37,620 nt of DNA from a virus. A model generated the notes under the pieces. It was not told the DNA's origin. It saw only the letters and a list, made by a program, of their open reading frames with translations, and did not search any database. Where the stretch lies: the IMG/VR virus record IMGVR_UViG_3300025000_000248. One strand, 5' to 3'. The position numbers and the translations under genes were made by a program. Below, in pieces: positions 1 to 27,388 of the stretch. The first letter of the stretch is position 1. Each line of letters starts with the position of its first letter.

Positions 1-90
1 TAGGGTGTCATATTATTTCTTTGATGCTAACCCCCCTTGTTTAGGCGTTTTGATGTACTGAGGGGAGGTAGAAGTGCTCCCTTTAATTTA

Positions 91-259
91 AAAAAGCTTT
101 TTAAGTATTTTAAGTATTTTAAGTATTTTAAGTATACTACTTATACTTCTTTTTATTTTAAGTAACCTTATTATATCTCTTTTTTTTAGTTTTTTAATGT
201 TTACTTTTTAAGAGTTCATCATATATACTTAAAATATTAAAAAGCTTAAAAAGCTTTTT
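91..259. repeat. AT-rich repeat region: 10-bp tandem repeat taagtatttt x about 4 (99-140) and two copies of the 12-bp palindrome AAAAAGCTTTTT (91-102, 248-259)
   Basis: Read directly from sequence; no ORF anywhere in 1-678. Confidence 0.8.
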
Positions 260-261
260 TA

Positions 262-291
262 AACCGAAAAAACCCTATGGGGGGTAGGGTT
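262..291 (-). terminator. Rho-independent terminator (minus strand): AACCCTA-ccccccA-TAGGGTT followed by TTTTTTCGG
   Basis: Perfect 7-bp GC-rich stem plus a U-run on the minus strand. Confidence 0.7.
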
Positions 292-361
292 ATTATACTG
301 TATGAAGGTTTTTATAGCTGAGAAAGATGCTTATTATACTTTACTCTCTTTTAGCTTAAAG

Positions 362-412
362 GGCCTTCGGCCCCGAGATAGTCGCCAAGGCTCCTATCTC
401 GTTTTTAGTATA
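362..412 (+). terminator. Plus-strand terminator-like tandem hairpins: GGGCC-UUCG-GGCCC then CGAGATAG-12 nt-CTATCTCG-TTTTT
   Basis: UUCG tetraloop hairpin followed by an 8-bp hairpin plus T5 on the plus strand. No plus-strand gene is evident. Confidence 0.45.
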
Positions 413-630
413 TTTAAACACGAACTGTATACTTAAGTGTTACTATTACGGATAAGCTATTATAAGTTTTTATCCTCTGTGACATAACCTGCTGAAAGAA
501 AGCTTAATATACTACCACAGATTAAACAAGAGGAAACGCTCTCCTAGGTAGGCCGTCTACGGCCAGTGTATACAGTATATTACCACCAATCCCGACTAAA
601 TCAGTCGGTATTACATTCACCCCAACAAGC

Positions 631-656
631 AGAGGAGCACCATATGGTGCTCCTCT
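631..656. promoter_or_regulatory. 26-bp perfect palindrome AGAGGAGCACCA-TA-TGGTGCTCCTCT (AGAGG...CCTCT hairpin family)
   Basis: Seen in sequence. Related members at 2760-2785, 3882-3910, 5597-5620, 7047-7070 and 14077-14102. Confidence 0.6.
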
Positions 657-678
657 TGGCTTTACGTGTCTAATATAA

Positions 679-930
679 TCACCCGCCCAGACTAACGTAG
701 TGTTTCATAGCGTTTAATGCTGATACCTTAGCTTCATTAATAAGAGCTGTATCCCCATTACCGCCCGTGCCATTTGGTACGCTGTTTAAGTTAGCACACC
801 CTGGACACTTAAACTTACTATGCTTTGGTACTAAGAACTTCCCGTGATCTATGCAACTCCTTACAGTCAAACCACTGGGCATACCAATCTGTGCTACTAT
901 GGTGTCAATAGGGCTTGTCATCTTTATCAC
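679..930 (-). CDS. Hypothetical small Cys/His-containing protein
   Basis: ORF of 83 aa in the minus-strand gene train. Confidence 0.45.
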   Translation of the reverse strand: MIKMTSPIDTIVAQIGMPSGLTVRSCIDHGKFLVPKHSKFKCPGCANLNSVPNGTGGNGDTALINEAKVSALNAMKHYVSLGG

Positions 931-933
931 TCC

Positions 934-1602
934 TTAGTCAGTAGTTTGTGCATCTTCATATTGTTTTAGGTATTCAGGAGCATGTTCCAAGTAATAAGCA
1001 TACTCTATGTCTGCTATATTCTTGTCCATCTCCTCCCACTTATCTGAAGGTACATACCTCTTAATTATCTCTAAGATAGCACCAAACTTCTTATCCTCCA
1101 GCTCACGTACTTGTTCTAGCCCAAACTCTGTAAGGCCAGCATGCTTACCTTGTGTTAACTTATTTTTCATTTCAATAGCTTTCAGTGTGTCAGATAAGCT
1201 AACCTCCTTAGCATTAAGAAGACTATCAAACCCTCGTTGTATGACCAGGTCTAGCACTTGTAATTCATTGCGCACCTTAACTTTAGCCTCTTCGTGTGCT
1301 ACAGGAGGTAGCATGATAGACTGTCTGGGAGCAGGGATACCTGCTGCACTTATGCCTAATAGCTTTTCCACAGTTATTTCTTTAGCCAAGGAGCTTTGTA
1401 ACAAGGCTTTGTACTCATACAGCTTTTGTATAGATATACTAAACCCATGTAGCCTGCACCAATCAGATAGCCTAGTGGGAGATTCCCCATCTAGTAATCT
1501 ACTGTTAAGCTGCTTTATATGTTCCCATGCACATAGTTTTTCTAACTTGTAATATTTAGTTTCAAGTTGAGTGGGTTTGTTAGGGGTGGGCACCATGACC
1601 AT
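934..1602 (-). CDS. Hypothetical protein (222 aa)
   Basis: Long minus-strand ORF, tightly spaced with its neighbour. Confidence 0.55.
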   Translation of the reverse strand: MVMVPTPNKPTQLETKYYKLEKLCAWEHIKQLNSRLLDGESPTRLSDWCRLHGFSISIQKLYEYKALLQSSLAKEITVEKLLGISAAGIPAPRQSIMLPPVAHEEAKVKVRNELQVLDLVIQRGFDSLLNAKEVSLSDTLKAIEMKNKLTQGKHAGLTEFGLEQVRELEDKKFGAILEIIKRYVPSDKWEEMDKNIADIEYAYYLEHAPEYLKQYEDAQTTD

Positions 1603-1619
1603 AAAATGACCTCCTTATT

Positions 1620-1883
1620 TTATGTGAGTTTGCGTATACCAAAGTCCTTAGGGTCAAATGCAGGCTGTATTGTTAGATGATACTCACAGACAAACCCTTC
1701 AGACACTACTGCTTGACTATTAACACCGGCATGCTTGGCCACTAGCCGGTAACCGGCTGTTTGGCCACAGGCTAGGCAGGTGGGGTGAGATGAGTAGACT
1801 GACTCTTTAAAGCTAACGTCAATGTCATGGCGCGATGCGCCTAGCGCTGTGCCTAAGTCTGATCTCATTACTTCTTTACACAT
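1620..1883 (-). CDS. Hypothetical protein (87 aa)
   Basis: ORF with no recognised motif. Confidence 0.4.
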   Translation of the reverse strand: MCKEVMRSDLGTALGASRHDIDVSFKESVYSSHPTCLACGQTAGYRLVAKHAGVNSQAVVSEGFVCEYHLTIQPAFDPKDFGIRKLT

Positions 1884-2020
1884 CCTTTACATATATGATC
1901 AGTTATAAGTTGTGCTAGCTCGATCCTAGGGATGCTATGTTTCTGGTAGGCGCGCCTAGAACAATAAATTTCAATAGGCTCGCCCGCTTACGCGGGCTCG
2001 CTTTAAGCTACCCCACCCAT

Positions 2021-2280
2021 CCCATACTAATTCATCCCATACTAATTCATCCCATACTAATTCATCCCATGCTAATTCATCCCATGCTAATTCATCCCAT
2101 GCTAATTCATCCCATACTAATTCATTCAATACTAATTCATTCAATGCTAATTCATTCAATGCTAATTCATTCAATGCTAATTCATCCCATACTAATTCAT
2201 TCAATACTAATTCATTCAATGCTAATTCATTCAATGCTAATTCATTCAATGCTAATTCATTCAATGCTAATTCATCCTAT
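2021..2280. repeat. About 17 tandem copies of a 15-bp unit (TAATTCATCCCATRC / TAATTCATTCAATRC variants): iteron-like array
   Basis: Seen in sequence. Flanked by GGCTCGCTTTAAG (2000-2012) and GGCTCGCTTTATTTTAAG (2286-2303), with a GC hairpin GCCCGC-TTAC-GCGGGC at 1982-1997. Confidence 0.9.
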
Positions 2281-2397
2281 ACCTGGCTCGCTTTATTTTA
2301 AGTTATCCACTGCAGTAGCCTACCACAATAAACCCCACAAGTCACTTACTGAGCACACAAATAGAACACCCATATTACAACAAATAGAACAAGCATA

Positions 2398-2691
2398 TTA
2401 TATCTCGTCCCTACCTTTCAACATATCATTAAGCTTTCTAAATCCACCTAGTTTACACATTGAGCAGGAGGTTAAGGTTATAAACTCACTTTTATCTAGG
2501 ATACACACTACACTCATGTCAAATAGACATCCAGTAGTGCTCCAATTGCCATGCTCATCTTCAAACACAAGGCCCCCAGTTACTACTTCAATTGTTTCAT
2601 AATGCTTACACACCCCGCATATAGGGGGCACCCCGCCCGCATAGTAAGGACATCTTACTTCTGGCCTAGCTATGCACATACCCTTTTCCAC
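2398..2691 (-). CDS. Cys-rich small protein (CPYYAGG...CGVCKHY), possibly distantly related to the CPLYGCPKH family
   Basis: ORF of 97 aa with a GTG/ATG start region. Confidence 0.5.
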   Translation of the reverse strand: MEKGMCIARPEVRCPYYAGGVPPICGVCKHYETIEVVTGGLVFEDEHGNWSTTGCLFDMSVVCILDKSEFITLTSCSMCKLGGFRKLNDMLKGRDEI

Positions 2692-2759
2692 ACAACCACC
2701 CCACTTTAACCATTAATATCTTTATCTTTCGTAACTCCACATGTAAGTAAACAACTAAA

Positions 2760-2785
2760 AGAGGTATCTCACATGAGATACCTCT
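2760..2785 (-). terminator. Perfect palindrome AGAGGTATCTC-ACAT-GAGATACCTCT followed on the minus strand by TTTTAGTTGTTT
   Basis: 11-bp stem plus a U-run on the minus strand. Confidence 0.55.
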
Positions 2786-2881
2786 AACCACTATTATCAA
2801 ATGGAAATCCTAACATATACCACATATGGTGGGCTAACTGTTAGCTATTAAAAAAATTACCCCCCTAAAAGAACTGCATAC

Positions 2882-2968
2882 CCCCTCCCCCAGGGGGTTC
2901 AAAAATATCAAGGGGGTATTGAAATAGGAGTGCCCACAGGGGCTAAGATAATATACCCCCTGGGGGTA
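2882..2968. promoter_or_regulatory. Cluster of GGGGGTAT / ATACCCCC octamers in both orientations, including the palindrome ATACCCCC-T-GGGGGTAT (2951-2967)
   Basis: Seen in sequence. Lies between the 3' end of the Cys-rich operon and the next gene start. Confidence 0.5.
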
Positions 2969-2976
2969 TCAATTCA

Positions 2977-3417
2977 TTATTCTAGGTAAGCACTTGACTC
3001 CCCTACAAGTATCTTCCTAGCAATGTAACCAAGCTTATTGAGTTGGTCTGCATAATAGTTAGCACCTGTATTGAAGCATAAATCTTCTGGTAATTTTGTC
3101 CCTAGCACCTTGTTAGCAATATCTTCAGGGGCATTAGTGATGAGGTAAGCACCTGAACCATGTAGGTACAACCTGCAAGCATCCAAATATCTCTGGGCTA
3201 ATAAGTCATTTTCAGATACTTCTGAGACAGGGTTTATAATAGGGGTGTCCTCCATTGTGATAGCTAATATGGGGTGCTTAGGACACCCATATAAGGGGCA
3301 GGTGTCCATTTTAGTTATAGTACACCCATCAGGCTTAGCATGCTCACACCCATCCACACACTCACACCAACCCGTCTTAGAGAAACATACTTTTCTGTCA
3401 ACATCATTGCACAACAT
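2977..3417 (-). CDS. Cys-rich CPLYGCPKH-family protein (member A) with about 90-aa C-terminal extension
   Basis: N-terminal C-x-DV-x-x-x-C...CxCxxC...TCPLYGCPKH block, shared with 8 paralogs. Confidence 0.65.
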   Translation of the reverse strand: MLCNDVDRKVCFSKTGWCECVDGCEHAKPDGCTITKMDTCPLYGCPKHPILAITMEDTPIINPVSEVSENDLLAQRYLDACRLYLHGSGAYLITNAPEDIANKVLGTKLPEDLCFNTGANYYADQLNKLGYIARKILVGESSAYLE

Positions 3418-3420
3418 ATA

Positions 3421-3795
3421 TTAATACTCCTCTCCTAATTCATGCGCCATTGGGGCATCATAACCATCCTCTTCTAGTATGCTAGACAATTTAGTGACAA
3501 CATACCCCCGGCTGATGAGATATGGAACAGTATCCTCTGGATCTACTTCATTACCCTCCTCATCTTCAGTAGGACGCTCATCCAGTACGTGTTCTAATTC
3601 AACAGGATCATCGGTGCCTTGCACTACATATGCTTGGCGTACAGCCCCTTCGGCATCATACCACAGATAAGCAGTCATCTTAGAGAAGTCCAGAGTGCTT
3701 ACCGCACCACAATTGATGCATAAAGACTTGTTAATTTCATCCCACATACCAGTTTCTAGACACTTAGGGCATTTAGCTTTAGCTAACACATTCAC
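3421..3795 (-). CDS. Zn-ribbon (CPKC...CINC) plus acidic X domain protein
   Basis: GTG start with AGAGGAGG ribosome-binding site. C-terminal half resembles the small ORFs that partner the Cys-rich genes. Confidence 0.55.
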   Translation of the reverse strand: MNVLAKAKCPKCLETGMWDEINKSLCINCGAVSTLDFSKMTAYLWYDAEGAVRQAYVVQGTDDPVELEHVLDERPTEDEEGNEVDPEDTVPYLISRGYVVTKLSSILEEDGYDAPMAHELGEEY

Positions 3796-3837
3796 TACAC
3801 ATACCTCCTCTTAGCCCAGACCTTCGGGGCATGATTA

Positions 3838-3866
3838 ATTATATCATGAAATGGGGGAGAAGTCAA
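3838..3866 (-). promoter_or_regulatory. Sigma-A-type promoter P1: cTTACTTGACTt-N17-TATAAT
   Basis: Conserved 12-mer around -35 and a consensus -10. Confidence 0.7.
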
Positions 3867-3881
3867 GTAACCCCACGTGCT

Positions 3882-3910
3882 AGAGGAGTACACGCAATGT
3901 GTACTCCTCT
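3882..3910. promoter_or_regulatory. Perfect palindrome AGAGGAGTACAC-GCAAT-GTGTACTCCTCT
   Basis: 12-bp stem immediately upstream of P1. Confidence 0.6.
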
Positions 3911-3943
3911 TTGTAGCAAATAGATTTAATGTAGCATCTTCAA

Positions 3944-4096
3944 TTACTTGCCCTCTGCATAGAACTTAAACCATACTTCATATTCCTCTAGGTTTAGTTC
4001 TACACACATACCATCACTCAGTATGTCATCTTCATAACCCTCAGTAGTAAACACACACCCTGATTCAGGGTGATGCCAGTACACCTTAGCTGTCAC
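3944..4096 (-). CDS. Unlisted small ORF (50 aa, GTG start, GGAGGA ribosome-binding site), X-domain-like
   Basis: Translated by eye as VTAKVYWHHPESGCVFTTEGYEDD... Sits between member B and P1. Confidence 0.3.
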   Translation of the reverse strand: MTAKVYWHHPESGCVFTTEGYEDDILSDGMCVELNLEEYEVWFKFYAEGK

Positions 4097-4125
4097 AATT
4101 TATAGTCCTCCATTCTGTTACAATC

Positions 4126-4308
4126 TTATTTCACTACAGCTTTATGCCTAGGACATCCATATAAGGGGCAGGTATGCTTCTGGGTAAGCATACATATCTT
4201 GGATACATGTGAATACTGATCACACACGTCACACTTACATATATTGCTGTTACCTAATTCACCATTAAAGCATACACTAATGTTCACTTCATCACACGTT
4301 TTATCCAC
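4126..4308 (-). CDS. Cys-rich CPLYGCPKH-family protein (member B)
   Basis: ...TCPLYGCPRHKAVVK. Confidence 0.6.
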   Translation of the reverse strand: MDKTCDEVNISVCFNGELGNSNICKCDVCDQYSHVSKICMLTQKHTCPLYGCPRHKAVVK

Positions 4309-4313
4309 ATTAT

Positions 4314-4496
4314 CTACCTCCTAGTTAAGGTCTCCTCATCTGCTAAGGTACAACGCTCTACCCATATGCCGTCTTTACTCGCCATACTCTTAGCCTCTTC
4401 ATGGTCTACTGCTTCATATTCTTCTACTGTGTTATAGAACTTATCAGCATCCATGCCATATCCCTGTCTGCATCCGGCTACTACATACTTTGGCAT
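4314..4496 (-). CDS. Small acidic protein (X1)
   Basis: 60 aa, immediately upstream of member B. Confidence 0.45.
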   Translation of the reverse strand: MPKYVVAGCRQGYGMDADKFYNTVEEYEAVDHEEAKSMASKDGIWVERCTLADEETLTRR

Positions 4497-4508
4497 TTCT
4501 TATCCCTC

Positions 4509-4862
4509 CTATATCATCTTATGATGTTTTAACCTTTCTGGATAGTTAGACATGATATAATCAAATACCTCTTGTTCTGACTCAGTGTTAATTCCTTTAA
4601 CCTTTAGCTCAGAAATAGCTATATGAAATCCTGTGCCATCTTCCCCACGTACAAAGAATGTGCCATAATTTCCACGTATATTGACCTCCACAGTGAAGTT
4701 AGCAATAGGTATACTGTTAGCATTCTCTAGTTCAGCACGTATTTGCATTAGGGCTTCTGCCCAGGACTGTTTACCTGTTTGGGCATCAATTATGGCATCC
4801 TCAATTACCCTACCAATCTCTAACACTTTATCCTCAATATCAGTTGTTGTGTGATTAGACAT
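4509..4862 (-). CDS. Hypothetical protein (117 aa)
   Basis: ORF with no recognised motif. Confidence 0.5.
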   Translation of the reverse strand: MSNHTTTDIEDKVLEIGRVIEDAIIDAQTGKQSWAEALMQIRAELENANSIPIANFTVEVNIRGNYGTFFVRGEDGTGFHIAISELKVKGINTESEQEVFDYIMSNYPERLKHHKMI

Positions 4863-4879
4863 TGCTTGCTACCTCCTTC

Positions 4880-5110
4880 TTAAGACTTATAATCTGACAT
4901 ACTGTTATAAGCTTTAGGCCAATCCTGTTCTTTTACAGTAGCTTCATGCTTGGGACACCCATATAATGGACAAGTACTAACTCCAGTAGATGGGCAGGGG
5001 TCACTGGCATCCATAGAGTAATTGTGATCAATCCTGGGGCAATCTAAACATGGACACCTATCCAGGTTCTGCTCACATATGTGTATTACTTCAGGACATA
5101 GCTTACTCAT
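4880..5110 (-). CDS. Cys-rich CPLYGCPKH-family protein (member C)
   Basis: MSKLCPEVIHIC...CPCLDC...TCPLYGCPKH. Confidence 0.6.
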   Translation of the reverse strand: MSKLCPEVIHICEQNLDRCPCLDCPRIDHNYSMDASDPCPSTGVSTCPLYGCPKHEATVKEQDWPKAYNSMSDYKS

Positions 5111-5313
5111 CCCATCGACCCCAATTCATAGGCTATTAGCATGCCAAGGGGTAAAGACATCTGCTCAGAAGCCATCTTAATAGCTTCTTCCTCAGTTTCA
5201 GCATGAAACACACCTAGAACTAAGTCTCCCTGCATTTCCCTAACACTACCATCATTTTCATTTGTTACATAAGCTACGGCTATAGCTTCACTCTCCACAC
5301 ATACTAGAAACAT
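5107..5313 (-). CDS. Small acidic protein (X2)
   Basis: 68 aa; its 3' end overlaps the start of member C by 4 bp (ATGA-type overlap). Confidence 0.45.
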   Translation of the reverse strand: MFLVCVESEAIAVAYVTNENDGSVREMQGDLVLGVFHAETEEEAIKMASEQMSLPLGMLIAYELGSMG

Positions 5314-5361
5314 TTCACATACCTCCTTATATATTTGGGCATAGTTTCCGCCCCCATTTTA

Positions 5362-5390
5362 ATTATCTCACACTCCAGAGAAAAAGTCAA
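5362..5390 (-). promoter_or_regulatory. Sigma-A-type promoter P2: CTTACTTGACTT-N17-GATAAT with GTGTGA -16 element
   Basis: Conserved motif. Confidence 0.7.
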
Positions 5391-5596
5391 GTAAGATTAG
5401 GTGATATAAGGTTATCCCATGCCTGCCCAAACTAGGGCTTATCAGTAACCTCACAAAAGCTGTAAGAAAATTTGTAAGAGAATTTCTCGGAGAAGGGTTT
5501 CCCATACCGGACGGAAATTCCCTTACAAAGTTCCTATGAAGTTTGTAAGAAGGTTTGTAAGGCCGGGAATAGGCGTCCACCCCCGCAAACGCGGAG

Positions 5597-5620
5597 AGAG
5601 GATACCATGTGGTATCCTCT
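5597..5620. promoter_or_regulatory. Perfect palindrome AGAGGATACCA-TG-TGGTATCCTCT, preceded by small hairpin CCGC-AAAC-GCGG
   Basis: Lies after the stop of member D. Confidence 0.6.
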
Positions 5621-5666
5621 TTGTCCTGGCTTGCTAGTAGGTGATCTGTAATGGGAATTTACACCC

Positions 5667-5831
5667 TTAACATTTTATACTACCCATTACTATGGGACAT
5701 CCATATATAGAACAGGGAGTCCCATTATGGTAATCATAACATGCTGTCCACCTATCACAATCAATACAATAACATGAGTAGCCCTTATTACTGCACTCAG
5801 CACTAGAGATTTCCCAGCATTGTTTAGGCAT
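5667..5831 (-). CDS. Cys-rich family member D (start refined to MPKQCW...)
   Basis: ...CYCIDC...TPCSIYGCP. The track ORF was extended into the upstream overlapping gene. Confidence 0.5.
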   Translation of the reverse strand: MPKQCWEISSAECSNKGYSCYCIDCDRWTACYDYHNGTPCSIYGCPIVMGSIKC

Positions 5832-5982
5832 AGGGTGCCTGCTTTTCAGTAGCAGCACACTTTTGACATCCATAGGCTGGGCATAATCGACATCCTACAT
5901 CGCATGTAGTACAAGGACACATCTTATCCCCAATTGTGTTGTCACATACTAAATTACTCACATCAAGACACATCTTACTCAT
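5824..5982 (-). CDS. Unlisted Cys-rich family member (I): MSKMCLDVSNLVCDNTIGDKMCPCTTCDVGCRLCPAYGCQKCAATEKQAPYA
   Basis: Found by hand translation. Its ATG overlaps the stop of member E (AATGAGTAA) and there is an AAGAGGAAA ribosome-binding site. Confidence 0.5.
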   Translation of the reverse strand: MSKMCLDVSNLVCDNTIGDKMCPCTTCDVGCRLCPAYGCQKCAATEKQAPYA

Positions 5983-6187
5983 TAGTTTCCTCCTTTAATA
6001 TGGCAGTGTGTTTAGGGCACCCATATAAGGGGCAAGTACCTGAAACTGGGTGAGCACACTCACCTTCTTTAAGCTTGATATACCCATCCTCGCAGTACAC
6101 ACACGGGCAGGTACTGTATCCAGTTGCCTCCTCCCGGCAAATATCTTCACAGACTTCTACATCAACCTTATTACAAGGCTTACTCAT
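5975..6187 (-). CDS. Cys-rich CPLYGCPKH-family protein (member E)
   Basis: MSKPCNKVDVEVC...CPCVYC...TCPLYGCPKH. Confidence 0.6.
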   Translation of the reverse strand: MSKPCNKVDVEVCEDICREEATGYSTCPCVYCEDGYIKLKEGECAHPVSGTCPLYGCPKHTAILKEETNE

Positions 6188-6365
6188 TGGTACCACCAGC
6201 TAAGCTTGTCAGATTTGATAGCACTGCACCATACTTTTGACATCCATACAAGGGACAACAAATGCAATCTCCTGATAGGAAAAAATCACAATCTCCACAC
6301 TCACAATAATCATGTCCTTCACACTCACAGACTTCCACATCCACATCCCCACAAAATCTACTCAT
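6180..6365 (-). CDS. Cys-rich family member F
   Basis: MSRFCGDVDVEVCEC...CCPLYGCQKY. Confidence 0.6.
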   Translation of the reverse strand: MSRFCGDVDVEVCECEGHDYCECGDCDFFLSGDCICCPLYGCQKYGAVLSNLTSLAGGTNE

Positions 6366-6525
6366 CATCTTCAACTCCTATCTTTTTACCATCTGCATAG
6401 GTTGCTTTGTGCTCTGCACACCCATATAGGGAGCATTGCTCGCATTGTGGTATTACTGGGCACCCTCTGCACGGACATATCTGATTGGCGCATTCTCGCA
6501 GTACCTCTCTACACAGCTTACTCAT
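6358..6525 (-). CDS. Cys-rich family member G
   Basis: MSKLCREVLREC...CPCRGC...CSLYGCAEH with a GTGAGGAAG ribosome-binding site. Confidence 0.6.
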   Translation of the reverse strand: MSKLCREVLRECANQICPCRGCPVIPQCEQCSLYGCAEHKATYADGKKIGVEDDE

Positions 6526-7006
6526 CTTCCTCACCCCCACTATCTAGACATTTATATGCCATGGCATTGTCGTCTCCGTCTTTTATCACCACCCCTGATA
6601 TTGGAATTACAGTATGCCCTAAGTTAACTAGGTGCTTGATGTGCGCCTTTGCATCCTTACAGTGGCACGTATTGCAGGCATTGCCTTCGCAGTTTAAGCA
6701 CACATCCCTATCATGCTCCTCCAGGATATTCTCAAGGTGCATGGGGTCATTCAGGCCATACACCAAATACGCTGAGCTGGGTGCTGTAGTAGAGTTATCA
6801 CCCCCGTACACAAGGTAGAGGACTGGGGCAGTAGGTTCAGGCTCAGCAGTTGGCAATGGGTGCTTAGGGCATCCAAATATGGGGCAGGTGTTCAGTTTGG
6901 TAATTGCACACACACCTTGATAATTAGACTTATTTTCACACATGTTGCAGTGACATGGGTACCCCTTAGCAGTACACATCTCAATAGATACATCTTTACA
7001 TTCCAT
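6518..7006 (-). CDS. Cys-rich family member H with fused C-terminal X-like domain and second Cys cluster
   Basis: MECKDVSIEMC...CHCNMC...TCPIFGCPKH, then ...AYLVYGLNDPMHLENILEEHD... Confidence 0.6.
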   Translation of the reverse strand: MECKDVSIEMCTAKGYPCHCNMCENKSNYQGVCAITKLNTCPIFGCPKHPLPTAEPEPTAPVLYLVYGGDNSTTAPSSAYLVYGLNDPMHLENILEEHDRDVCLNCEGNACNTCHCKDAKAHIKHLVNLGHTVIPISGVVIKDGDDNAMAYKCLDSGGEEDE

Positions 7007-7175
7007 ACATACACCCCCTTATTTTCCTAAATAAACCTCAAGTGCTGAGAGGAGCCCCATGCTCCCCTCTTTCACTAGTACTTCTTGGATGAGGGAATTT
7101 AAGTACTCTCTATCCTTCTCAGATAACCCCAGCTCTGGTAAATTGAACACAACTGTGATCTTTACTTGCTCCACT

Positions 7176-7526
7176 TTATTCCCCCTTACACATGCGCTCC
7201 ATAATAGTAAGTCTGCTAATAATCATGGTGAGTACACAGGCGCTATCCAACCCATCTATCACGAATCTCTCATGTAACTCCTCGGCGGTAATGTGTTCTC
7301 CCTCTAACCACCCCATTATTTGATCTGCTACCTGGCCAAAGGCAAAACTGGTAGCTGTTGCAGTCTCCCCAGTTTCTAGGTCACTGACCTGCACCATGGA
7401 TTCATCTGTACAGGGCCCTACCTTCAATGTGACATTAAATGGTGTACCGCAACAGACACATATCCACCCCATAATATCAATGTGATGAATCTCAGTGTTG
7501 CTACAATTTGGGCATTTCGTTAACAT
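7176..7526 (-). CDS. Zn-ribbon protein (CPNC...CVCC)
   Basis: ORF of 116 aa. Confidence 0.5.
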   Translation of the reverse strand: MLTKCPNCSNTEIHHIDIMGWICVCCGTPFNVTLKVGPCTDESMVQVSDLETGETATATSFAFGQVADQIMGWLEGEHITAEELHERFVIDGLDSACVLTMIISRLTIMERMCKGE

Positions 7527-7543
7527 CTACATACCTCCCTACT

Positions 7544-7813
7544 TTAATCCCAATAATTACTACCTACTGTATTTACTCCAAGCTTATATAGTTCTCTTAA
7601 GGTTATCTCTAGAATCTTTTCATTGGGGATAGCAGCAATGATGCAAGCGTTAGCTTCAATAGTACTGAGATCAAATGCTTGACCAAGATGAACATTCAGA
7701 AATACATGAAAATGTGGGTATTCAGTAGCTTTAAAGTCATCAACATTAGGGGGTGTCACCAATCCAGTGCCTTCAACATTGTACATACAAGGGTTAAAAA
7801 ATGCTACAGCCAT
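7544..7813 (-). CDS. Hypothetical protein (89 aa)
   Basis: ORF with no recognised motif. Confidence 0.45.
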   Translation of the reverse strand: MAVAFFNPCMYNVEGTGLVTPPNVDDFKATEYPHFHVFLNVHLGQAFDLSTIEANACIIAAIPNEKILEITLRELYKLGVNTVGSNYWD

Positions 7814-7861
7814 TTACATACCTCCTCTTATTTTCTGTGGGGGCATTCTTCCCCACACCCA

Positions 7862-7890
7862 ATTATATCACAAAACAGAGGAGAAGTCAA
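7862..7890 (-). promoter_or_regulatory. Sigma-A-type promoter P3: CTTACTTGACTT-N17-TATAAT (TTGTGA -16 element)
   Basis: Conserved motif. Confidence 0.7.
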
Positions 7891-7926
7891 GTAAGGTTAG
7901 GTGTTATGGGCCTAAGCATGAGAAGG

Positions 7927-7956
7927 TAAAGAAAATAGCCCTTGTAGGGGGCTATT
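7927..7956 (-). terminator. Terminator hairpin AAATAGCCC-TTGTAGG-GGGCTATTT plus TTTCTTT on the minus strand
   Basis: 9-bp stem plus a U-run. Confidence 0.6.
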
Positions 7957-8197
7957 TGTCTACTAATTTCTACTCCTCCTGAATAGATCTGCATACATTA
8001 ATGAGACTGTGCACTAATCCTACAGATGCTGCTAAATGGCCACCCTAACCACCAAGATATAAACTTGCGGCACTAACGCATACCTCCATGCTTATTATCT
8101 TCTCCCTCAGGTTCTTTGCTCATGCACATAAAGATAAGCACCATCCACGCACCTAATCCAGCTAATATGGTTGCTGCACTTATCATGCATAATGCCA

Positions 8198-8461
8198 TCA
8201 TTCTTTACCATCCTCACTACCCTTCCTATACCATATAACTGTATTCCACATGGACTTAGAAGTATCCATGTCGCCAACCGCAATAACAATATACTCAACT
8301 AATAAATAAGCCAATAACCACGGAGGAACTACTAGATGTTTTAATCTTACACCTCCATTTAGGTACTTCATATTAAAGTCTCCCGCATGGTATCCTATAA
8401 AAAGGATTACAGCACTTACGACAAATATTGTAACACTTATTATCCCAAACGCTATTAACAT
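8198..8461 (-). CDS. Small membrane protein
   Basis: Hydrophobic N-terminus. Confidence 0.45.
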   Translation of the reverse strand: MLIAFGIISVTIFVVSAVILFIGYHAGDFNMKYLNGGVRLKHLVVPPWLLAYLLVEYIVIAVGDMDTSKSMWNTVIWYRKGSEDGKE

Positions 8462-8658
8462 ATCCCCGCACTCCTCACTTTAATGTCTTCCACCCAGCCA
8501 TCTACGAACTTGCCTAGTTCCTCAAAGGGTGCTCCTTCTAGGTGACTCCCATACTTCGACTGAGCAATCTCTAGGTAAGTAGCTATATCTTTGGTACTAA
8601 CTCCTAAAGGTTCCAACCCTGCCACTAACATGAAATATAGAGCTTGGTGCTTAGTCAT
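8455..8658 (-). CDS. Hypothetical protein (67 aa)
   Basis: ORF with no recognised motif. Confidence 0.4.
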   Translation of the reverse strand: MTKHQALYFMLVAGLEPLGVSTKDIATYLEIAQSKYGSHLEGAPFEELGKFVDGWVEDIKVRSAGIC

Positions 8659-9145
8659 TTCTGGGTCTCACCGCAGTAGTCACTTCTTGTGACACCACCG
8701 CTGGCTTCCAATCACCTGAAGGTCTAAATTTAGATAGGTCTCCCCCAGTCTCTAACAAGGCATTAAGCTCTCCCCATTGTTCTGAGGTCATATCACGCTG
8801 TATGTACGTATCCCACCATTCATACCAAGCTTTATATGAGTCGGTACGATCTACATGCTCTCCAGGTTTAGGGTCAGGGATCTCTACTCCGAACCTACGT
8901 GATTGCATCACAGCAAACTCTAAGGCATATTGTGCCCGTATCATGTCATCAGCAACTTCTATTGGCATTGGCATACCGATTTCATGATTCAATTGGCTAG
9001 CATGTTTCACATTGTGAATAAACCTATCCAGCACATCAATTATACCATATACCCCATATTCGGAACCAGACTTAAGTATTTCCACCCCCTTCTTCATAAT
9101 AAATGTGCCAGGATCTATGCCCCATTGTAGGTGTAGGTTTAACAT
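8651..9145 (-). CDS. Hypothetical protein (start refined to MLNLHL... with AAAGAGGAGGA ribosome-binding site)
   Basis: ORF with strong Shine-Dalgarno sequence. Confidence 0.5.
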   Translation of the reverse strand: MLNLHLQWGIDPGTFIMKKGVEILKSGSEYGVYGIIDVLDRFIHNVKHASQLNHEIGMPMPIEVADDMIRAQYALEFAVMQSRRFGVEIPDPKPGEHVDRTDSYKAWYEWWDTYIQRDMTSEQWGELNALLETGGDLSKFRPSGDWKPAVVSQEVTTAVRPRND

Positions 9146-9200
9146 GAGCTTGTCCTCCTCTTTCATATTGAATAAGCCCACATATAAGTGGGCTTATTCT

Positions 9201-9416
9201 TTATTCAGCGCTCCAAGATGCGCCACACAGGTCACATGTAAACATTGCGTACCCATGTGGAAGTTCTATGCTAACAGCACCACCACCATCCTCGCGCCTG
9301 GGGTCACAAGCGTCTAGGAGTTCTTGCCTTTTCACCTTATTAGCTAATAGAACCTCTTCCTGAACAGCTATGTCTGCATTGAGCTCAGTTAACGCCTTAA
9401 TACTTATGCTGTCCAT
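9201..9416 (-). CDS. Hypothetical protein (71 aa)
   Basis: AAGGAGG ribosome-binding site. Confidence 0.5.
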   Translation of the reverse strand: MDSISIKALTELNADIAVQEEVLLANKVKRQELLDACDPRREDGGGAVSIELPHGYAMFTCDLCGASWSAE

Positions 9417-9581
9417 TTACTTGCTAACCTCCTTAATTCTTAAGGGACAAGTTTCCCACTCATCGAGATGGGGGCACTCGGCACCATCATAGCATCTCCT
9501 CTTAGTAGGCCCCTTGAAAATGAAACATAAATAAGTGATAACACTAACCAAGATTATGCTCCCGGAAATAATCAGATCCAA
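9417..9581 (-). CDS. Unlisted small membrane protein ORF (54 aa, TTG start)
   Basis: Hand translation LDLIISGSIILVSVITYLCF... Its stop abuts the next ribosome-binding site and start codon. Confidence 0.3.
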   Translation of the reverse strand: MDLIISGSIILVSVITYLCFIFKGPTKRRCYDGAECPHLDEWETCPLRIKEVSK

Positions 9582-9592
9582 TATATAGCCCC

Positions 9593-9889
9593 CTAGTACA
9601 GATTAGAACTGCCTCCGCTATTAACTCCCAGCCACCCCACCATGGCCAATATGGCCACTACAATAGCCACCCCACCCTGAGCACGTGTAGGCTCTTTGAT
9701 TAGAGCTATACCACCAAAGATAAACCCAACAAAGGGAAACACACAAGTAAGGCTAAGAATTACCCCCAGCTTAACCATAGACCAAGGCTTAACCTCTTTG
9801 GCTAGAACCTCACTTTTAGTAGGCTCCCCACAGTTTGGGCAGTGTAATGCGTTGGCAGACATATCCTTACTACAGTTTTTACAGAACAT
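9593..9889 (-). CDS. Zn-ribbon plus 2-TM membrane protein
   Basis: CKNC...CPNC then hydrophobic segments. Confidence 0.5.
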   Translation of the reverse strand: MFCKNCSKDMSANALHCPNCGEPTKSEVLAKEVKPWSMVKLGVILSLTCVFPFVGFIFGGIALIKEPTRAQGGVAIVVAILAMVGWLGVNSGGSSNLY

Positions 9890-9960
9890 AGTAGATGCCT
9901 CCTAATTATAAACTCAGTATCTTCAACCGCAGTTCTATTTAATCTATTCACCTCTTGTAC

Positions 9961-10227
9961 TTAGTCGTGGAAAATAAATAGACCCATAGCCCCAAATATC
10001 ACAAACAATATCAACCAACCAAGTAAAGTATACCCGATGTCATCCCAAGGTACTTCATAATAATGTGGCGTTTCCTTATCTTCTTTAAGGTGAGGTAGGG
10101 GACAATCACTGGGTATGTAATCACCATCACCAGGATGCCCCTCTTTTAATTTGTCCCAGTACACAAACATACCTACTTCTCCATGTGGACAATGATAACA
10201 ATCATTTACTGATACTTTTGCACACAT
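9961..10227 (-). CDS. Small protein with C-terminal TM helix
   Basis: ORF of 88 aa. Confidence 0.45.
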   Translation of the reverse strand: MCAKVSVNDCYHCPHGEVGMFVYWDKLKEGHPGDGDYIPSDCPLPHLKEDKETPHYYEVPWDDIGYTLLGWLILFVIFGAMGLFIFHD

Positions 10228-10480
10228 GCGTTTAAAGAAACTTATTCTTCTTTAAGAATAGCCTCCCTACACTTCAATTCATCACCTTAATCAGTTCATC
10301 TACCCCTCTCCTATAATCAGGTTTAGCTCCCACCACACTTAGCGGGAGCCTAGTCCTTATGGTATTAGCCTGTTAAAGAAATCATATACAACAGGTGTCG
10401 TTTTGACAAGTACATATCCAGTGATTACTGTTTTTAGGACTTCTTGTATCACAAGATGAACACCCATCTTAGTTCCCCCT

Positions 10481-11158
10481 TTATCCCAACAATTTAGCAT
10501 CTCGCAATGCCATTATGCAATACATGCGGAGTATCCTCAAATCACCCTTAGCATCTTTCACTTCCAAGTCATTATCCATGGTCATTTGCACTAACTGCTC
10601 TGTAGTGTAGGCAGCATATTTGGACTTAGACTTACCCCCAGTCTTCTCCTTAGGGAAGTGTAGCTCAACAATCGCCATAGCCACACGCATACGCCAGATA
10701 GCCTCATGGTCTGTGACTTTAATGTCGGAGAGAATACCTTCCAGATCAGCCCACTCCATAAGCTCATCAATAGAGAGCTTCTTAATAAACTTCTGTAGAG
10801 GTTTCTTCTCCTTATAAGTACCCTTCTCTGGATAAGTTACATCTGATATCACCGCAGGCTTACCTTGAAGCTTAGGTGCAGGAGTTTCTAGTGGAGGCTC
10901 CTCCTCTTCATCAGTGTTTTCCACCTCTTCAGCAGCAACAGCTACCTCATCCTCAGTGGCATTGTCCAAGGAGGTTTCCACCTCATCTAGAACTTCCAGT
11001 TCAGGCTCTTCATCAATATTGTCCCCGCCATCCACGATAACTCCTGGATATAGACCTGCCTCGATGTCCCGAGTAGTAACACGGGGTACTCCCAGTTCCA
11101 CAGCTAGTTCTTTAAGGGAAGATACCTCTTTGCCATTAACCATATACATTTTACTCAT
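10481..11158 (-). CDS. Hypothetical protein with long acidic (D/E-rich) linker
   Basis: ORF of 225 aa. Confidence 0.5.
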   Translation of the reverse strand: MSKMYMVNGKEVSSLKELAVELGVPRVTTRDIEAGLYPGVIVDGGDNIDEEPELEVLDEVETSLDNATEDEVAVAAEEVENTDEEEEPPLETPAPKLQGKPAVISDVTYPEKGTYKEKKPLQKFIKKLSIDELMEWADLEGILSDIKVTDHEAIWRMRVAMAIVELHFPKEKTGGKSKSKYAAYTTEQLVQMTMDNDLEVKDAKGDLRILRMYCIMALRDAKLLG

Positions 11159-11218
11159 TCACATACACTCCTTCATATTGTTATAGTGGTCGTAGGGTGC
11201 TCCCCGACCCGTTGAATA

Positions 11219-11248
11219 ATTTTATCATGGGGGTGGGGGGGAAGTCAA
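11219..11248 (-). promoter_or_regulatory. Sigma-A-type promoter P4: CTACTTGACTT-N18-TAAAAT
   Basis: Conserved motif. Confidence 0.6.
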
Positions 11249-11412
11249 GTAGACTTAGTTGATAGAGCTTTAAGCATCTGATCTTCAGTGTCCCTTGTAT
11301 TCATATCTTCCATAACTAAGCATAATAGGATTTTTAGCTCAAGTCGGGAGTATCCATGTGATATTTCTTGTAACTCATCTCTGAGGGTTGATAATTCCTT
11401 AACGCTGAACAC
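11245..11412 (-). CDS. Unlisted small ORF (55 aa, GTG start, TAGGAGGT ribosome-binding site)
   Basis: Hand translation VFSVKELSTLRDELQEISHG... Confidence 0.3.
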   Translation of the reverse strand: MFSVKELSTLRDELQEISHGYSRLELKILLCLVMEDMNTRDTEDQMLKALSTKST

Positions 11413-11423
11413 TTACATACCTC

Positions 11424-11705
11424 CTAATCTTTTATATCTGGCCCGTATATAGTAACTAAAACTGAGGCACTTTTAGGCCTATTCTTTATGATCCTTAGTA
11501 CTAATGTGTTGTTAGCAGTAGGGTCTGAATGAATTATCACCCTATTAGCATCCAGTATATCGGATTCTGGTCTATTAGATGTAGGACTTTGATGTGCATT
11601 TATTCCTTCCTTAGCTAAAGCAGCCATAACTCTAAGTTCAAACTGGGAGTAACTCTGATCTATCAATCTTCTGCTCTCCCCTATTTCATTGCTTTTGTCT
11701 TTCAT
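11424..11705 (-). CDS. Hypothetical protein
   Basis: ORF of 93 aa. Confidence 0.45.
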   Translation of the reverse strand: MKDKSNEIGESRRLIDQSYSQFELRVMAALAKEGINAHQSPTSNRPESDILDANRVIIHSDPTANNTLVLRIIKNRPKSASVLVTIYGPDIKD

Positions 11706-11716
11706 CTGTATGTCTC

Positions 11717-12046
11717 CTACACTATAGTAATGTGATCACTGAAGACATCTAAAGGGAGCCACCGTACACTCTTATCCACCAGATATGGAGAAACATACTC
11801 AAACCCAATAAAGTATCCAGCTAGTGTCTCAGCTATTTCCTCACTCCAGAAATTCTTATCTGAGATGTACTCCGCTATGTACTCTCCGGCTTCTTTAGGA
11901 ACACTGATAGCAGGCTGGATTTCCACCACTTTGATAGTACCTTCCATGAGGCTAGACCACCCAGTGCTAGGATGAATCTTGTAGTGCACATTAAGCACTA
12001 TGGATTCACAAGGTCTAGCTACACCTTCCATTGTAATTACATTCAC
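11717..12046 (-). CDS. Hypothetical protein
   Basis: ORF of 109 aa. Confidence 0.45.
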   Translation of the reverse strand: MNVITMEGVARPCESIVLNVHYKIHPSTGWSSLMEGTIKVVEIQPAISVPKEAGEYIAEYISDKNFWSEEIAETLAGYFIGFEYVSPYLVDKSVRWLPLDVFSDHITIV

Positions 12047-12090
12047 TCACACATACCTCCTTATCTTGCGTGGGCTTCGCCCCACGATTA

Positions 12091-12119
12091 ATTTTACCAT
12101 GGGCTGGGGGAAAAGTCAA
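12091..12119 (-). promoter_or_regulatory. Sigma-A-type promoter P5: CTTACTTGACTT-N17-TAAAAT
   Basis: Conserved motif. Confidence 0.65.
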
Positions 12120-12144
12120 GTAAGGTTAAATGGTATGAAAGCGT

Positions 12145-12176
12145 ATAAGAAAACCCCACCTGCTAAGAGTGGGGTT
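12145..12176 (-). terminator. Terminator AACCCCAC-9 nt-GTGGGGTT plus TTTTCTTAT on the minus strand
   Basis: 8-bp GC-rich stem plus a U-run, immediately upstream of P5. Confidence 0.65.
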
Positions 12177-12184
12177 GTGAAGAA

Positions 12185-12517
12185 CTAGGTGGCAGGAGTA
12201 AAGTCCTGGACTTCTACTTGTAGGTCACCCCACCAGAAGCCATAATCAGTTAGGAGCACTGAATTGTCTTGAAGTAGATTGTGCTCTTCAATACTTGGCA
12301 CAAAATCCCTATCTTCTGAGTATCTCACCCAAATTTCAGATATTTGAGCTAGATCCTTCCTCATGCTAGGGTGTGGCATGCTTTGTGGTATTAGTGCTAA
12401 AATAGTATTATCTGTGGATTCAAGAAACACATGATCTACACCCTCCCCTACGGCCTCTAGGGTAGAAATTATAGCCTGTTGGGTAGTGAGATTCTCCAGA
12501 TTGATCACTGCAATCAT
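12185..12517 (-). CDS. Hypothetical protein
   Basis: ORF of 110 aa. Confidence 0.45.
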   Translation of the reverse strand: MIAVINLENLTTQQAIISTLEAVGEGVDHVFLESTDNTILALIPQSMPHPSMRKDLAQISEIWVRYSEDRDFVPSIEEHNLLQDNSVLLTDYGFWWGDLQVEVQDFTPAT

Positions 12518-12529
12518 TGTATGGCCTCC

Positions 12530-13120
12530 TTAGCTTTCTATTATGACGTTACAATCTTTACAACCCCAGCAATAATCCACTACCTCACCCTGTTTGATAT
12601 CTATTTGAACTTCTGCAGGTTTGTTACACTTAGGGCACAGTACCACGTCCCTAGGGGTAGGAGCCTTGTAGTGCTTACAGGAATCTGTGTGGATTAACTT
12701 GCACCCCTCGCCATATGGGCCTTCAGGCCAAGGGGCATGGCATACTCCACCATCAAAGTGTACGCAACCTTTGGTATCAAGGGTGCCAATGTCAATTATC
12801 TCTAATTTAAGGGACTCAGACTTAATCTCCTGAATATGCCCAGTATCATGTAAATACTTGATAATCTCATCATGGGTCAAAGTAGAGAATATACTAAGAA
12901 CTTTAACCTGCCACTGCTCACAGATACTCTCAGGATGTCCCACTATACGTTGTACAACCTCAGATAACTGATCCCATCTTATATACATTAATTCAGGTGC
13001 GGTGCAACAGGCGTCTCGGCTAACACGTTCAAACCCACTGAGATCTGTACCCTCTGGTAGCTCTGCTTTAATCTGTTTAATAACTTCCCCTATATTGCGT
13101 GGTGTTTCACTCAATTTCAC
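12530..13120 (-). CDS. Hypothetical protein with C-terminal Zn ribbon (CPKC...CWGCKDC)
   Basis: ORF of 196 aa. Confidence 0.5.
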   Translation of the reverse strand: MKLSETPRNIGEVIKQIKAELPEGTDLSGFERVSRDACCTAPELMYIRWDQLSEVVQRIVGHPESICEQWQVKVLSIFSTLTHDEIIKYLHDTGHIQEIKSESLKLEIIDIGTLDTKGCVHFDGGVCHAPWPEGPYGEGCKLIHTDSCKHYKAPTPRDVVLCPKCNKPAEVQIDIKQGEVVDYCWGCKDCNVIIES

Positions 13121-13796
13121 TTACCGTCCTTCCAGCCATAGCATTGATAAATCTAGCAATATCACCATGAGTGAAGAACCGAGCATCGTCAAATACAAAG
13201 CGTATCTCTGATTTACAGGGTGGGGCTGTGTATATAAATTCCAGCTCCACTTGTTCTGATGAATATCCTGCCTTACGTATCCGAGCTTCAAAAAATTTTC
13301 CCACTGCACTAACTAATTCAGGGCTTGACAATGAAGAAGGCATTTTCAGTATCATTTCTGGATAGGATCGGGCAGTGGCCCAATAGGATTCCATGCCTTC
13401 CTCATCTTTTATGATATCGCTTAGAGTTTCATCAAACCACCATCTATGGAGATACTCACTTTCTGGGCCTTCTAACTGGAGGAATGCATAGTTAATGTCT
13501 TCACATAGAGTAGACAAAGTGTTGCCCTCTAAGGGTAAAGCAATAAAGTCTGGGAACTGAGGATACTCACCCTCAGTGAACACAAGGTCATATATGTGCT
13601 CCACTACCTCAGTACTAACACATGCCGGAGCATATACTTCAATGTGCTGATCTAGTTTAAGCCAAGCATACTTGAGGTCGGGTAGATTCTCCTTTACAAA
13701 CTGTTCAGTGCTTAAACCACTGCGATGCTCTTCTTGGGTAAATACTAAGGTTTTACCCTCAAATTTAGAGAGGTCAACCTTCATTAATACTGTCAT
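13107..13796 (-). CDS. Hypothetical protein (229 aa)
   Basis: ORF with no recognised motif. Confidence 0.5.
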   Translation of the reverse strand: MTVLMKVDLSKFEGKTLVFTQEEHRSGLSTEQFVKENLPDLKYAWLKLDQHIEVYAPACVSTEVVEHIYDLVFTEGEYPQFPDFIALPLEGNTLSTLCEDINYAFLQLEGPESEYLHRWWFDETLSDIIKDEEGMESYWATARSYPEMILKMPSSLSSPELVSAVGKFFEARIRKAGYSSEQVELEFIYTAPPCKSEIRFVFDDARFFTHGDIARFINAMAGRTVSEIE

Positions 13797-13996
13797 CCCA
13801 CTTCCCCCTCCATGCTCTTAATATGAATCTTCTCGTTTACTTCATAGAATGGGACACCATCCGCCCATTGGCTGTCATCAATGAAAAGGACGCTATTAGA
13901 GTTTTTAGCAACAACCTCTCTGAGCTGTTCTACAATACCATCCAGGTTACGTTTGTTGGCCGCATCTAAGGTCAATGTGATTGAAATTACTGACAT
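13793..13996 (-). CDS. Hypothetical protein (67 aa)
   Basis: ORF with no recognised motif. Confidence 0.4.
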   Translation of the reverse strand: MSVISITLTLDAANKRNLDGIVEQLREVVAKNSNSVLFIDDSQWADGVPFYEVNEKIHIKSMEGEVG

Positions 13997-14046
13997 TATA
14001 CATACCTCCTGTTTAAATTAAAGTAAGGTTCTCTGAACCTCCCCTA

Positions 14047-14102
14047 ATTGTTGCATGAAACCAAGAAAAAGTCAAGTACCTCTAAGGCTTTCCTTAGAGG
14101 TA
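14047..14102 (-). promoter_or_regulatory. Promoter P6 (TACTTGACTT-N17-AACAAT) whose -35 overlaps the palindrome TACCTCTAAGG-CTTTC-CCTTAGAGGTA (14077-14102)
   Basis: Conserved motif with an overlapping 11-bp palindrome. Confidence 0.55.
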
Positions 14103-14226
14103 CTTTTCTCACTTCTCTTGATAGAAGTTGCTAACATCCATTAAAGTTATACCGCTCATTATGTGACCACCTATAGCTGCTTCTACAGCTTGAAGTATCA
14201 CCATTTCATCTTCTTCACTCTGGATT

Positions 14227-15082: not shown

Positions 15083-15085
15083 CCC

Positions 15086-15547: not shown

Positions 15548-15548
15548 A

Positions 15549-15833: not shown

Positions 15834-15836
15834 CTA

Positions 15837-15865
15837 ATTTTCTCACAAAACGAGGGAGAAGTCAA
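15837..15865 (-). promoter_or_regulatory. Sigma-A-type promoter P7: CTACTTGACTT-N17-GAAAAT (TTGTGA -16 element)
   Basis: Conserved motif. Confidence 0.65.
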
Positions 15866-16165: not shown

Positions 16166-16176
16166 TATACAACCTC

Positions 16177-27384: not shown

Positions 27385-27388
27385 ATTA

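Follow-up and report, generated by a model that had tools for sequence, protein, structure and literature searches.

In SPO1, a group of 61-bp direct repeats (two near-perfect and about three degenerate copies) adjoins the left end of the genome without a single intervening base; each of these repeats starts with the sequence preceding the cut (TTCAGGGACC), and the same arrangement is found in SPO1L4. Beyond the right boundary of the SPO1 terminal redundancy, another box (GCCGCCCCCTAGACC) and five copies of TTCATTCAAAACTA are present. No description of the 61-bp repeats or of the terminal box (see below) was found in the literature searched, and to our knowledge no small terminase has been annotated, and no recognition site has been defined, in SPO1-like phages. 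In some other phages, the terminase recognition sites contain repeated elements next to the cut site, as in the case of the R sites of lambda cosB and of the hexamers of P1 pac. In T7, arrays of the CCTAAAG motif (about 12 copies) are located immediately outside and inside the boundaries of the 160-bp terminal repeat, on both sides, and a GC palindrome (CCCCCATAGGGGG) lies at positions 26-38 (L076), near the left end. These T7 arrays are reportedly those that Dunn and Studier named SRL and SRR in 1983 and linked to concatemer processing. Lastly, the terminal repeat of phiAGATE is flanked by 7-nt and 8-nt tandem repeats, which have been linked to end formation (PMC3900605).

The DNA analysed here (hereafter, the window) is a metagenomic contig of 37,620 nt (37.6 kb) from an uncultivated groundwater phage, and all of its sizeable genes are located on the minus strand, the direction of which is referred to as gene sense. 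The array of interest and the elements surrounding it are the following (no strand is assigned unless one is stated):

2018-2272: repeat array, made up of 17 complete head-to-tail 15-bp units belonging to four sub-types (obtained by splitting the sequence)
2273-2282: truncated 18th unit, CATCCTATAC (sequence splitting and direct reading)
1982-1997: GC hairpin GCCCGC-TTAC-GCGGGC, the sole stable fold as single-stranded DNA
1995-2007: proximal copy of the direct repeat, GGCTCGCTTTAAG (minus strand CTTAAAGCGAGCC; sequence comparison)
2285-2303: distal copy of the direct repeat, GGCTCGCTTTATTTTAAG (minus strand CTTAAAATAAAGCGAGCC), which reads AAGAGCGAGCC in the array-less relative
1939-1960, minus strand: most conserved non-coding block between the window and the array-less contig L002, TCTAGGCGCGCCTACCAGAAAC on the minus strand

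Tandem Repeats Finder (TRF) reported a 15-bp period at 2018-2277, with 17.3 copies, 95% matches, no indels and a score of 352. The unit reads CATYCMATRCTAATT on the plus strand and AATTAGYATKGRATG in gene sense, the spacing from one unit start to the next is exactly 15 bp, and the units are contiguous. The initial annotation had described about 17 units with a perfect period, bounded on both sides by a direct repeat, preceded by a GC hairpin and not attributable to a CRISPR. All these points were borne out: the array consists of 17 complete units plus the truncated one, GGCTCGCTTTA has exact matches in the window at 1995 and 2285 only, the hairpin is located at 1982-1997, and no unique spacers separate the contiguous units. 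The blocks of sub-types that it had noticed do exist, although the sub-types are four and not two; they combine CATCCC or CATTCA with ATA or ATG (the variable blocks being CCC/TCA and A/G), and their order in the window is A1x3 A2x3 A1 B1 B2x3 A1 B1 B2x4, a 75-bp higher-order unit (A1 B1 B2 B2 B2) being recognisable inside the array. On direct reading, each B unit contains a small dyad (CATT-C-AATG). When up to two mismatches are allowed, CATYCMATRCTAATT finds 18 matches in the window, 17 of which fall within the array, against the 1.0 expected from shuffled sequences. The flanking direct repeat is AAAGCGAGCC.

The GC content around the array is 0.38-0.43. The promoter/terminator scan disclosed no promoter-like site within the array, the Rfam and tRNA scans gave nothing in the array region, an exact scan of IMG/VR with the repeat unit gave no match, and positions 1-8000 of the window had no megablast match in the phage collection. 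Folded as single-stranded DNA, the array does not form a stable structure by itself (z -1.8), and the GC hairpin is the only stable element of the region; the possibility of a cruciform or of a structured RNA was therefore abandoned. The idea that the GGGAUG of the A units might form a CsrA sponge was dropped as well, GGA being absent from the B units and from the units of strain L010.

The truncated 18th unit reads GTATAGGATGAATTA on the minus strand, where it is one base off the array unit GTATGGGATGAATTA, and overlaps a distal box-like element, TATAGG (minus strand, 2276-2281), which comes after the distal direct repeat. On the basis of the similarity between GTATAGGATGAATTA and GTATGGGATGAATTA, the array looks as if 15 bp bordering the box-like element had been amplified in tandem, and the truncated unit looks like the seed of the array.

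An exact look-up of the 222-aa protein encoded next to the array (see below) retrieved ten groundwater-metagenome contigs, from at least ten assemblies, with flanks matching those of the window. In the contigs with identical flanks, the number of units per array is 9, 10, 12, 13 or 17, and hence the check proposed in the initial annotation, i.e., whether the repeat number varies between related phages, gave a positive answer. The alleles are the following (sub-types in gene-sense coding):

window: 17 units, BBBBbaBBBbaAAAaaa
six contigs: 12 units, BBBBbaAAAaaa
L007: 10 units, BBbaAAAaaa
L008: 9 units, BBbaAAAaa
L010: 13 units, with different 5' units

A single BBBba block (75 bp, five units) is all that separates the 17-unit allele from the 12-unit one, which is the signature of slippage or unequal exchange. 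In L010, the unit is 14 or 15 nt long and its sequence has drifted; another contig (L011) starts within the array. Even though the copy numbers rest on short-read assemblies, which are prone to repeat mis-assembly, most of the variation is judged to be real, because the runs of identical units are no longer than 60 bp and are thus shorter than the assembler k-mers. As read from the assembled alleles, the array is a true VNTR, i.e., a hypervariable minisatellite; it can be used as a strain marker for the groundwater phage, and it accounts for the assemblies breaking at the array.

Downstream of the array, at a distance of about 135 bp, begins a conserved operon of three genes. The genes and signals on its two sides are the following:

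1620-1883, minus strand: 87-aa Cys-containing protein (phrog_32508), homologue of gp36.1, the first gene of SPO1
934-1602, minus strand: 222-aa protein (phrog_1007), homologue of SPO1 gp36.2, with 44-48% identity to Bacillus phages
679-930, minus strand: 83-aa ORF in the position of SPO1 gp36.3 (position only)
2398-2691, minus strand: 97-aa Cys-rich ORF, directly upstream of the array in gene sense and conserved in L002
2760-2785, minus strand: terminator-like hairpin that ends the upstream block of small genes, conserved in L002

The 87-aa protein matches gp36.1 with an E of 2e-9. In SPO1, gp36.1 (125-430), gp36.2 and gp36.3 are the first three genes, and a tblastn search of the 222-aa protein against cultured phages placed the gp36.2 counterparts about 400-1100 bp from the start of the record in SPO1 (402-1082), CampHawk, Goe2, JL, Shanette and an Exiguobacterium phage. 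The same layout as in SPO1 is found in JL and in the Exiguobacterium phage, whose gene 1 starts at 76 and 89, respectively, and the trio opens the Shanette genome too; the JL record notes a repeat_region at 1-16292, and in SPO1 the annotation of gp0.11 reads 'first gene in unique sequence', i.e., outside the terminal redundancy. Upstream, the SPO1-like relatives have small genes in the same orientation followed by a long stretch of non-coding DNA, as does the window. The distance from the end to gp36.1 in SPO1, JL and the Exiguobacterium phage (76-125 bp) corresponds to positions 1958-2008 of the window, beside the array. Since gp36.1-36.3 are syntenic with the starts of SPO1-like genomes, a left terminal-repeat boundary is expected at this site, and the array probably lies no more than about 300 bp from the left edge of a long terminal repeat; that this phage has direct terminal repeats we infer from its relatedness to the SPO1-like phages. 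Judging from these homologies, the initial annotation overlooked the position of the array upstream of the first genes of SPO1-like genomes. In a 67%-identical relative (P0002), the contig starts inside gp36.1 and carries no upstream DNA. SPO1 gp51-like proteins are encoded on both sides of the locus in related contigs.

The scans of IMG/VR and JGI metagenomes with a protein profile yielded 53 related loci. In about 30 of the related loci, the motif GT(C/A)CCGCCCCCTATAGG occurs once per locus, on the gene strand and upstream of gp36.1, and is followed about 12 nt later by AATTTTTA (AATTTTT). Examples of this terminal box, from the sequence scan, are the following:

L044, 524-540, gene strand: terminal box
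L035, 658-674, gene strand: terminal box
SPO1 (L013), 1-18, gene strand: terminal box

The box opens the records of SPO1 and Shanette; those of JL and of the Exiguobacterium phage start at it or slightly ahead of it, and in six metagenome contigs the first base is no more than 21 nt away from it. Since records and contigs start there, the box marks the physical left end in the SPO1-like family. The loci tested for repeats beside it were 17, from about 15 independent lineages; in 7 of them, the 30-nt stretch leading up to the box recurs 2-8 times in the preceding 300 bp, the value in control windows being 0.2-0.6. In L047, L069 and L035, TRF arrays abut the box or are located near it, and in about half of the related lineages no repeats were detected there. 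The present locus and the comparison with these relatives suggest that arrays of repeats next to the conserved box recur across the family.

An nhmmer profile built on the terminal boxes of 21 relatives gave no significant match in the window, L002, L003 and L010, and a search of the window's lineage for the right-boundary box that SPO1 and JL share gave nothing. By eye, some similarity to parts of the family terminal box is seen in three places (the distal box-like element, the hairpin and the GGCGCGCC block), and this likeness, together with their position, makes them candidate homologues of it. The block at 1939-1960 also resembles, again by eye, a variant of the terminal box (GGCGCGCCCCTACC) found at the start of contig L063.

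The comparison with the array-less relative (contigs L001 and L002), which shows 93% protein identity in the neighbouring gene and in which the array is wholly absent, points to the flanking elements. Both the window and L002 maintain two copies of (A)AAGCGAGCC, a hairpin and, 25-35 nt further on, the block TCTAGGCSCGCCTACCAGAAAC; the DNA between the two copies of the direct repeat is unrelated, being the 15-bp array in the window vs. an 80-nt unique stretch in L002. The hairpin has changed in both arms (GCCCGC/GCGGGC in the window vs. GCCCC/GGGGC in L002, where it reads GCCCC-GATA-GGGGC). It is not an intrinsic terminator, because no T run comes after it, and it is one candidate for a diverged terminal box, the block at 1939-1960 being a second candidate for the terminus. 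In all, the candidate termini in the window are located at about 1950, about 1990 and about 2285, so that the array could be either just outside or just inside the terminal repeat.

Other repeats occur in the surroundings. In L002, a different tandem repeat (52 bp, 2.5 copies, 98% identical) is located at 4747-4876, about 640 bp further upstream, and the IMG/VR contig L001 begins exactly at this repeat. A 79-aa ORF of L002 (5394-5633), whose N-terminus is hydrophobic in our own reading, spans both AAGAGCGAGCC copies in different frames. In the window, a 23-bp direct repeat (ACAAATAGAACANNCATATTA, 1.9 copies, 2357-2400) lies in the stretch that separates the array from the 97-aa ORF; read on the gene strand, it contains the code for a hydrophobic mini-ORF of 16 aa, and it varies in L010 too.

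When compared with the described systems, the locus resembles SPO1 in that the repeats are located directly upstream of gp36.1/36.2/36.3 in both, in that they are non-coding direct repeats, those of SPO1 adjoining the boundary of its 13.2-kb terminal redundancy, and in that they are bordered in both by copies of a sequence beside the cut site or box, putative in the window. The two differ in several respects: SPO1 harbors about five, mostly degenerate, copies of 61 bp, whereas the units here are 15 bp long, 9-17 in number, near-perfect and strongly polymorphic; the ends of SPO1 are those of the deposited record, whereas the end here is inferred; and the terminal box is clear in SPO1, whereas the profile search found none here. 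Just past the right boundary of the SPO1 terminal redundancy (about 13235-13364 of the genome; L074 636-765), there are five copies of (T)TCATTCAAAACTA, a motif identical to the array unit TTCATTCAATACTA at 13 of 14 positions, and both read outward from the repeat. Shuffled motifs reach at least 13 matches in 7 of 5000 trials, and at least 12 matches are found about once per 2 kb of real DNA; the likeness of this right-flank motif to the array unit may be a coincidence.

T7 would share with this locus the presence of short-motif arrays at terminal-repeat boundaries, and its palindrome CCCCCATAGGGGG resembles the SPO1-like box CCGCCCCCTATAGG; however, it belongs to an unrelated phage family, its terminal repeat is short, and its 7-bp motifs are separated by variable spacers rather than arranged head-to-tail. 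As in lambda cosB and P1 pac, multiple short repeats would be located beside a cleavage site and near conserved small genes at the genome end; unlike lambda cosB, the array of the window is dispensable and variable, and its role in terminase recognition is putative. In the case of phiAGATE, which belongs to the same broad phage family, the repeats flank the terminal repeat, as the array would here, but the unit lengths and sequences are others, and the 7-nt array is located about 1 kb from the boundary (coordinates from PMC3900605).

Taken together, the synteny, the copy-number variation and the comparison with the relatives make it probable, though far from certain, that the array is a VNTR in the sub-terminal concatemer-junction region of an SPO1-like (Herelleviridae-type) phage, near the left boundary of its long terminal repeat. 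With moderate confidence, it can be regarded as a fresh case of a known and poorly understood class, namely the sub-terminal repeat arrays found by phage terminal repeats. According to this model, a genome end (the terminase cut site) would be located beside the array; the unit would derive from 15 bp that border the box-like element and were duplicated in tandem, and slippage during replication or unequal recombination would lengthen and shorten the array. The elements that are both conserved and functional would be the hairpin or box together with the direct repeats on either side of the array; these might be analogous to the repeated half-sites located by the cut site in SPO1 and other relatives and would probably serve end-recognition or packaging proteins. 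The 15-bp array itself would be a tolerated, possibly accessory, spacer or an extra binding surface between the flanking sites, since the sister lineage does without it; because about half of the lineages, besides this sister lineage, lack such repeats, any function of the array would be dispensable.

A more specific proposal can be built on the same elements, i.e., that the flanking repeats, the hairpin or box and the array form a pac/cos-like end-recognition site of SPO1-like phages, and that gp36.1 (Zn-ribbon-like) and gp36.2 (HTH-like domain plus long helices), which are universally adjacent to it, are end-binding or small-terminase-like proteins. This proposal is rather improbable. The gp36.2 homologue, considered as a candidate small terminase, gave no PDB or Pfam sequence match and no significant structural match.

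It is also conceivable, although unlikely, that the array is a neutral, slippage-prone minisatellite embedded in a long intergenic region and unrelated to the ends of the genome, the termini being located elsewhere or the phage adopting another kind of packaging. Near-perfect units with a polymorphic copy number are what recent slippage predicts, and the array-less sister lineage, the negative profile search for the family box and the absence of a stable fold of the array are in agreement with it. However, gp36.1-36.3 are located at the physical left end in every relative with annotated ends, direct repeats recur at the same position in independent lineages, and different lineages have kept both the hairpin and the direct repeat at the flanks, all of which argues for a connection with the genome end.

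The initial annotation had also considered a high-copy binding platform for a phage regulator. The array may indeed act as a generic protein-binding platform, and its partner is more likely to be the machinery of packaging or end recognition than a transcription regulator. In its specific form, in which the array would be an operator or a centromere-like platform for the 87-aa Zn-ribbon-like protein or for the 222-aa protein with its HTH-like domain, involved in the regulation of the operon or in a partition-type site, the idea is rather improbable. The proximity to the three-gene operon and the dyad of the B units are compatible with it. The AlphaFold model of the 222-aa protein (pLDDT 74.7) shows a confident N-terminal four-helix domain and long C-terminal helices; its top Foldseek matches, HTH proteins such as EspR and ArdK, are weak and not significant (nothing below E = 2), and a distant homologue (H29) is annotated as a sigma factor. 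On the other hand, the array is absent from relatives harboring the same operon, the unit is 14-15 nt long and drifts in sequence between strains, and within the window it is confined to the array. As for a partition (parS-like) site, which had been suggested as well, it is unlikely, because no match to a ParA, ParM or TubZ-type NTPase was found in the flanking genes tested.

Tandem direct repeats upstream of a small operon are also typical of origin iterons and of the parC and tubC centromeres; here, in contrast, neither an initiator nor a partition NTPase was found, the repeats are unphased, and they are not conserved among relatives. The replication-origin iterons put forward in the initial annotation are, for this reason, very unlikely. 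Many direct repeats are present in non-coding DNA and a single DnaA-box-like site (TTATCCACT, 8/9, 2303-2311) can be recognised, but this lone site is lost in L010 and no cluster of DnaA boxes exists. No initiator gene is adjacent, the neighbours (the gp36.1/36.2 homologues and the 97-aa Cys-rich ORF) having no match to a Rep-like family; the region is not AT-rich enough for an unwinding element, and the contiguous 15-bp period (with 14-nt units in L010) places successive sites on different faces of the helix. Moreover, the units vary from 9 to 17 and drop to 0 in a relative with the same replication genes.

Lastly, the array might be translated as a pentapeptide-repeat protein, 15 bp being equal to five codons. 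Open frames made only of repeats do exist on both strands, i.e., HPILI on the plus strand (1937-2602) and NELAL/WDELV on the minus strand (1971-2264, TTG start), and in several contigs the gene callers put ORFs of 57-72 aa over the array. This reading is hardly credible, given that in gene sense an in-frame TAG interrupts the frame at the array border, the only available start being a TTG within the repeat and no distinct ribosome-binding site being present, that this frame is destroyed in L010 by three 14-nt units (which leave no gene-sense ORF of at least 20 aa across the array), that L002 lacks the array altogether, that every difference between unit types changes an amino acid, that neither repeat ORF has a Pfam match, and that all the genes of the window run opposite to the HPILI frame. 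The array is non-coding; the claims that it is intergenic and that the repeat-only ORFs are artefacts both held.

A second repeat-rich region is present in the window:

85-291, no strand assigned: non-coding AT-rich VNTR, downstream of the ORF in the gp36.3 position

It contains 4.1 copies of TTTTAAGTA at 99-135 (three copies in L003), a 30-bp repeat in two copies at 124-184 and long AT-rich inverted repeats. At 271-291, before these repeats in gene sense, a box-like hairpin (AACCCTACCCCCCATAGGGTT) with a T run resembles the terminal box, and the window contig, L005 and L012 all end in or near this region. It could be an ordinary terminator region or, more speculatively, the other boundary of the terminal repeat, which would then be a short one.

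The rest of the window, all on the minus strand, encodes an 842-aa protein with major-vault-protein domains (19440-21968; Pfam MVP_shoulder, E 6e-26, and Vault_3, E 4e-7), which is unusual for a phage, a sigma-70-like factor of 458 aa (33908-35284), a UvrD-type helicase of 655 aa (17093-19060) and three tRNAs (Ile-TAT, Trp and Asp, at 27308-27463 and 29526-29602). Between 2977 and 6196, the minus strand also harbors a family of small Cys-rich paralogues sharing the C-terminal motif CPLYGCPKH or close variants of it, examples of which are the following:

2977-3417, 4126-4308, 4880-5110, 5667-5873 and 5975-6196, minus strand: Cys-rich paralogues

The DNA similarity among these paralogues (3275-3324 vs. 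4145-4194) also yields chance-like matches to the pattern of the terminal box.

If the placement based on synteny were wrong, the array would be an ordinary hypervariable minisatellite. If, instead, the pac/cos-like reading were true, the presence of the palindromic box in T7 as well (CCCCC(T)ATAGGG) would suggest that unrelated phage families cut and duplicate their direct terminal repeats by one mechanism. The way in which ends are recognised, cut and duplicated in phages with long exact terminal repeats (SPO1, T5 and T7 types) is still poorly understood, and the conserved box, the contigs starting at it and the repeats recurring outside it represent concrete sequences on which end formation may be tested.
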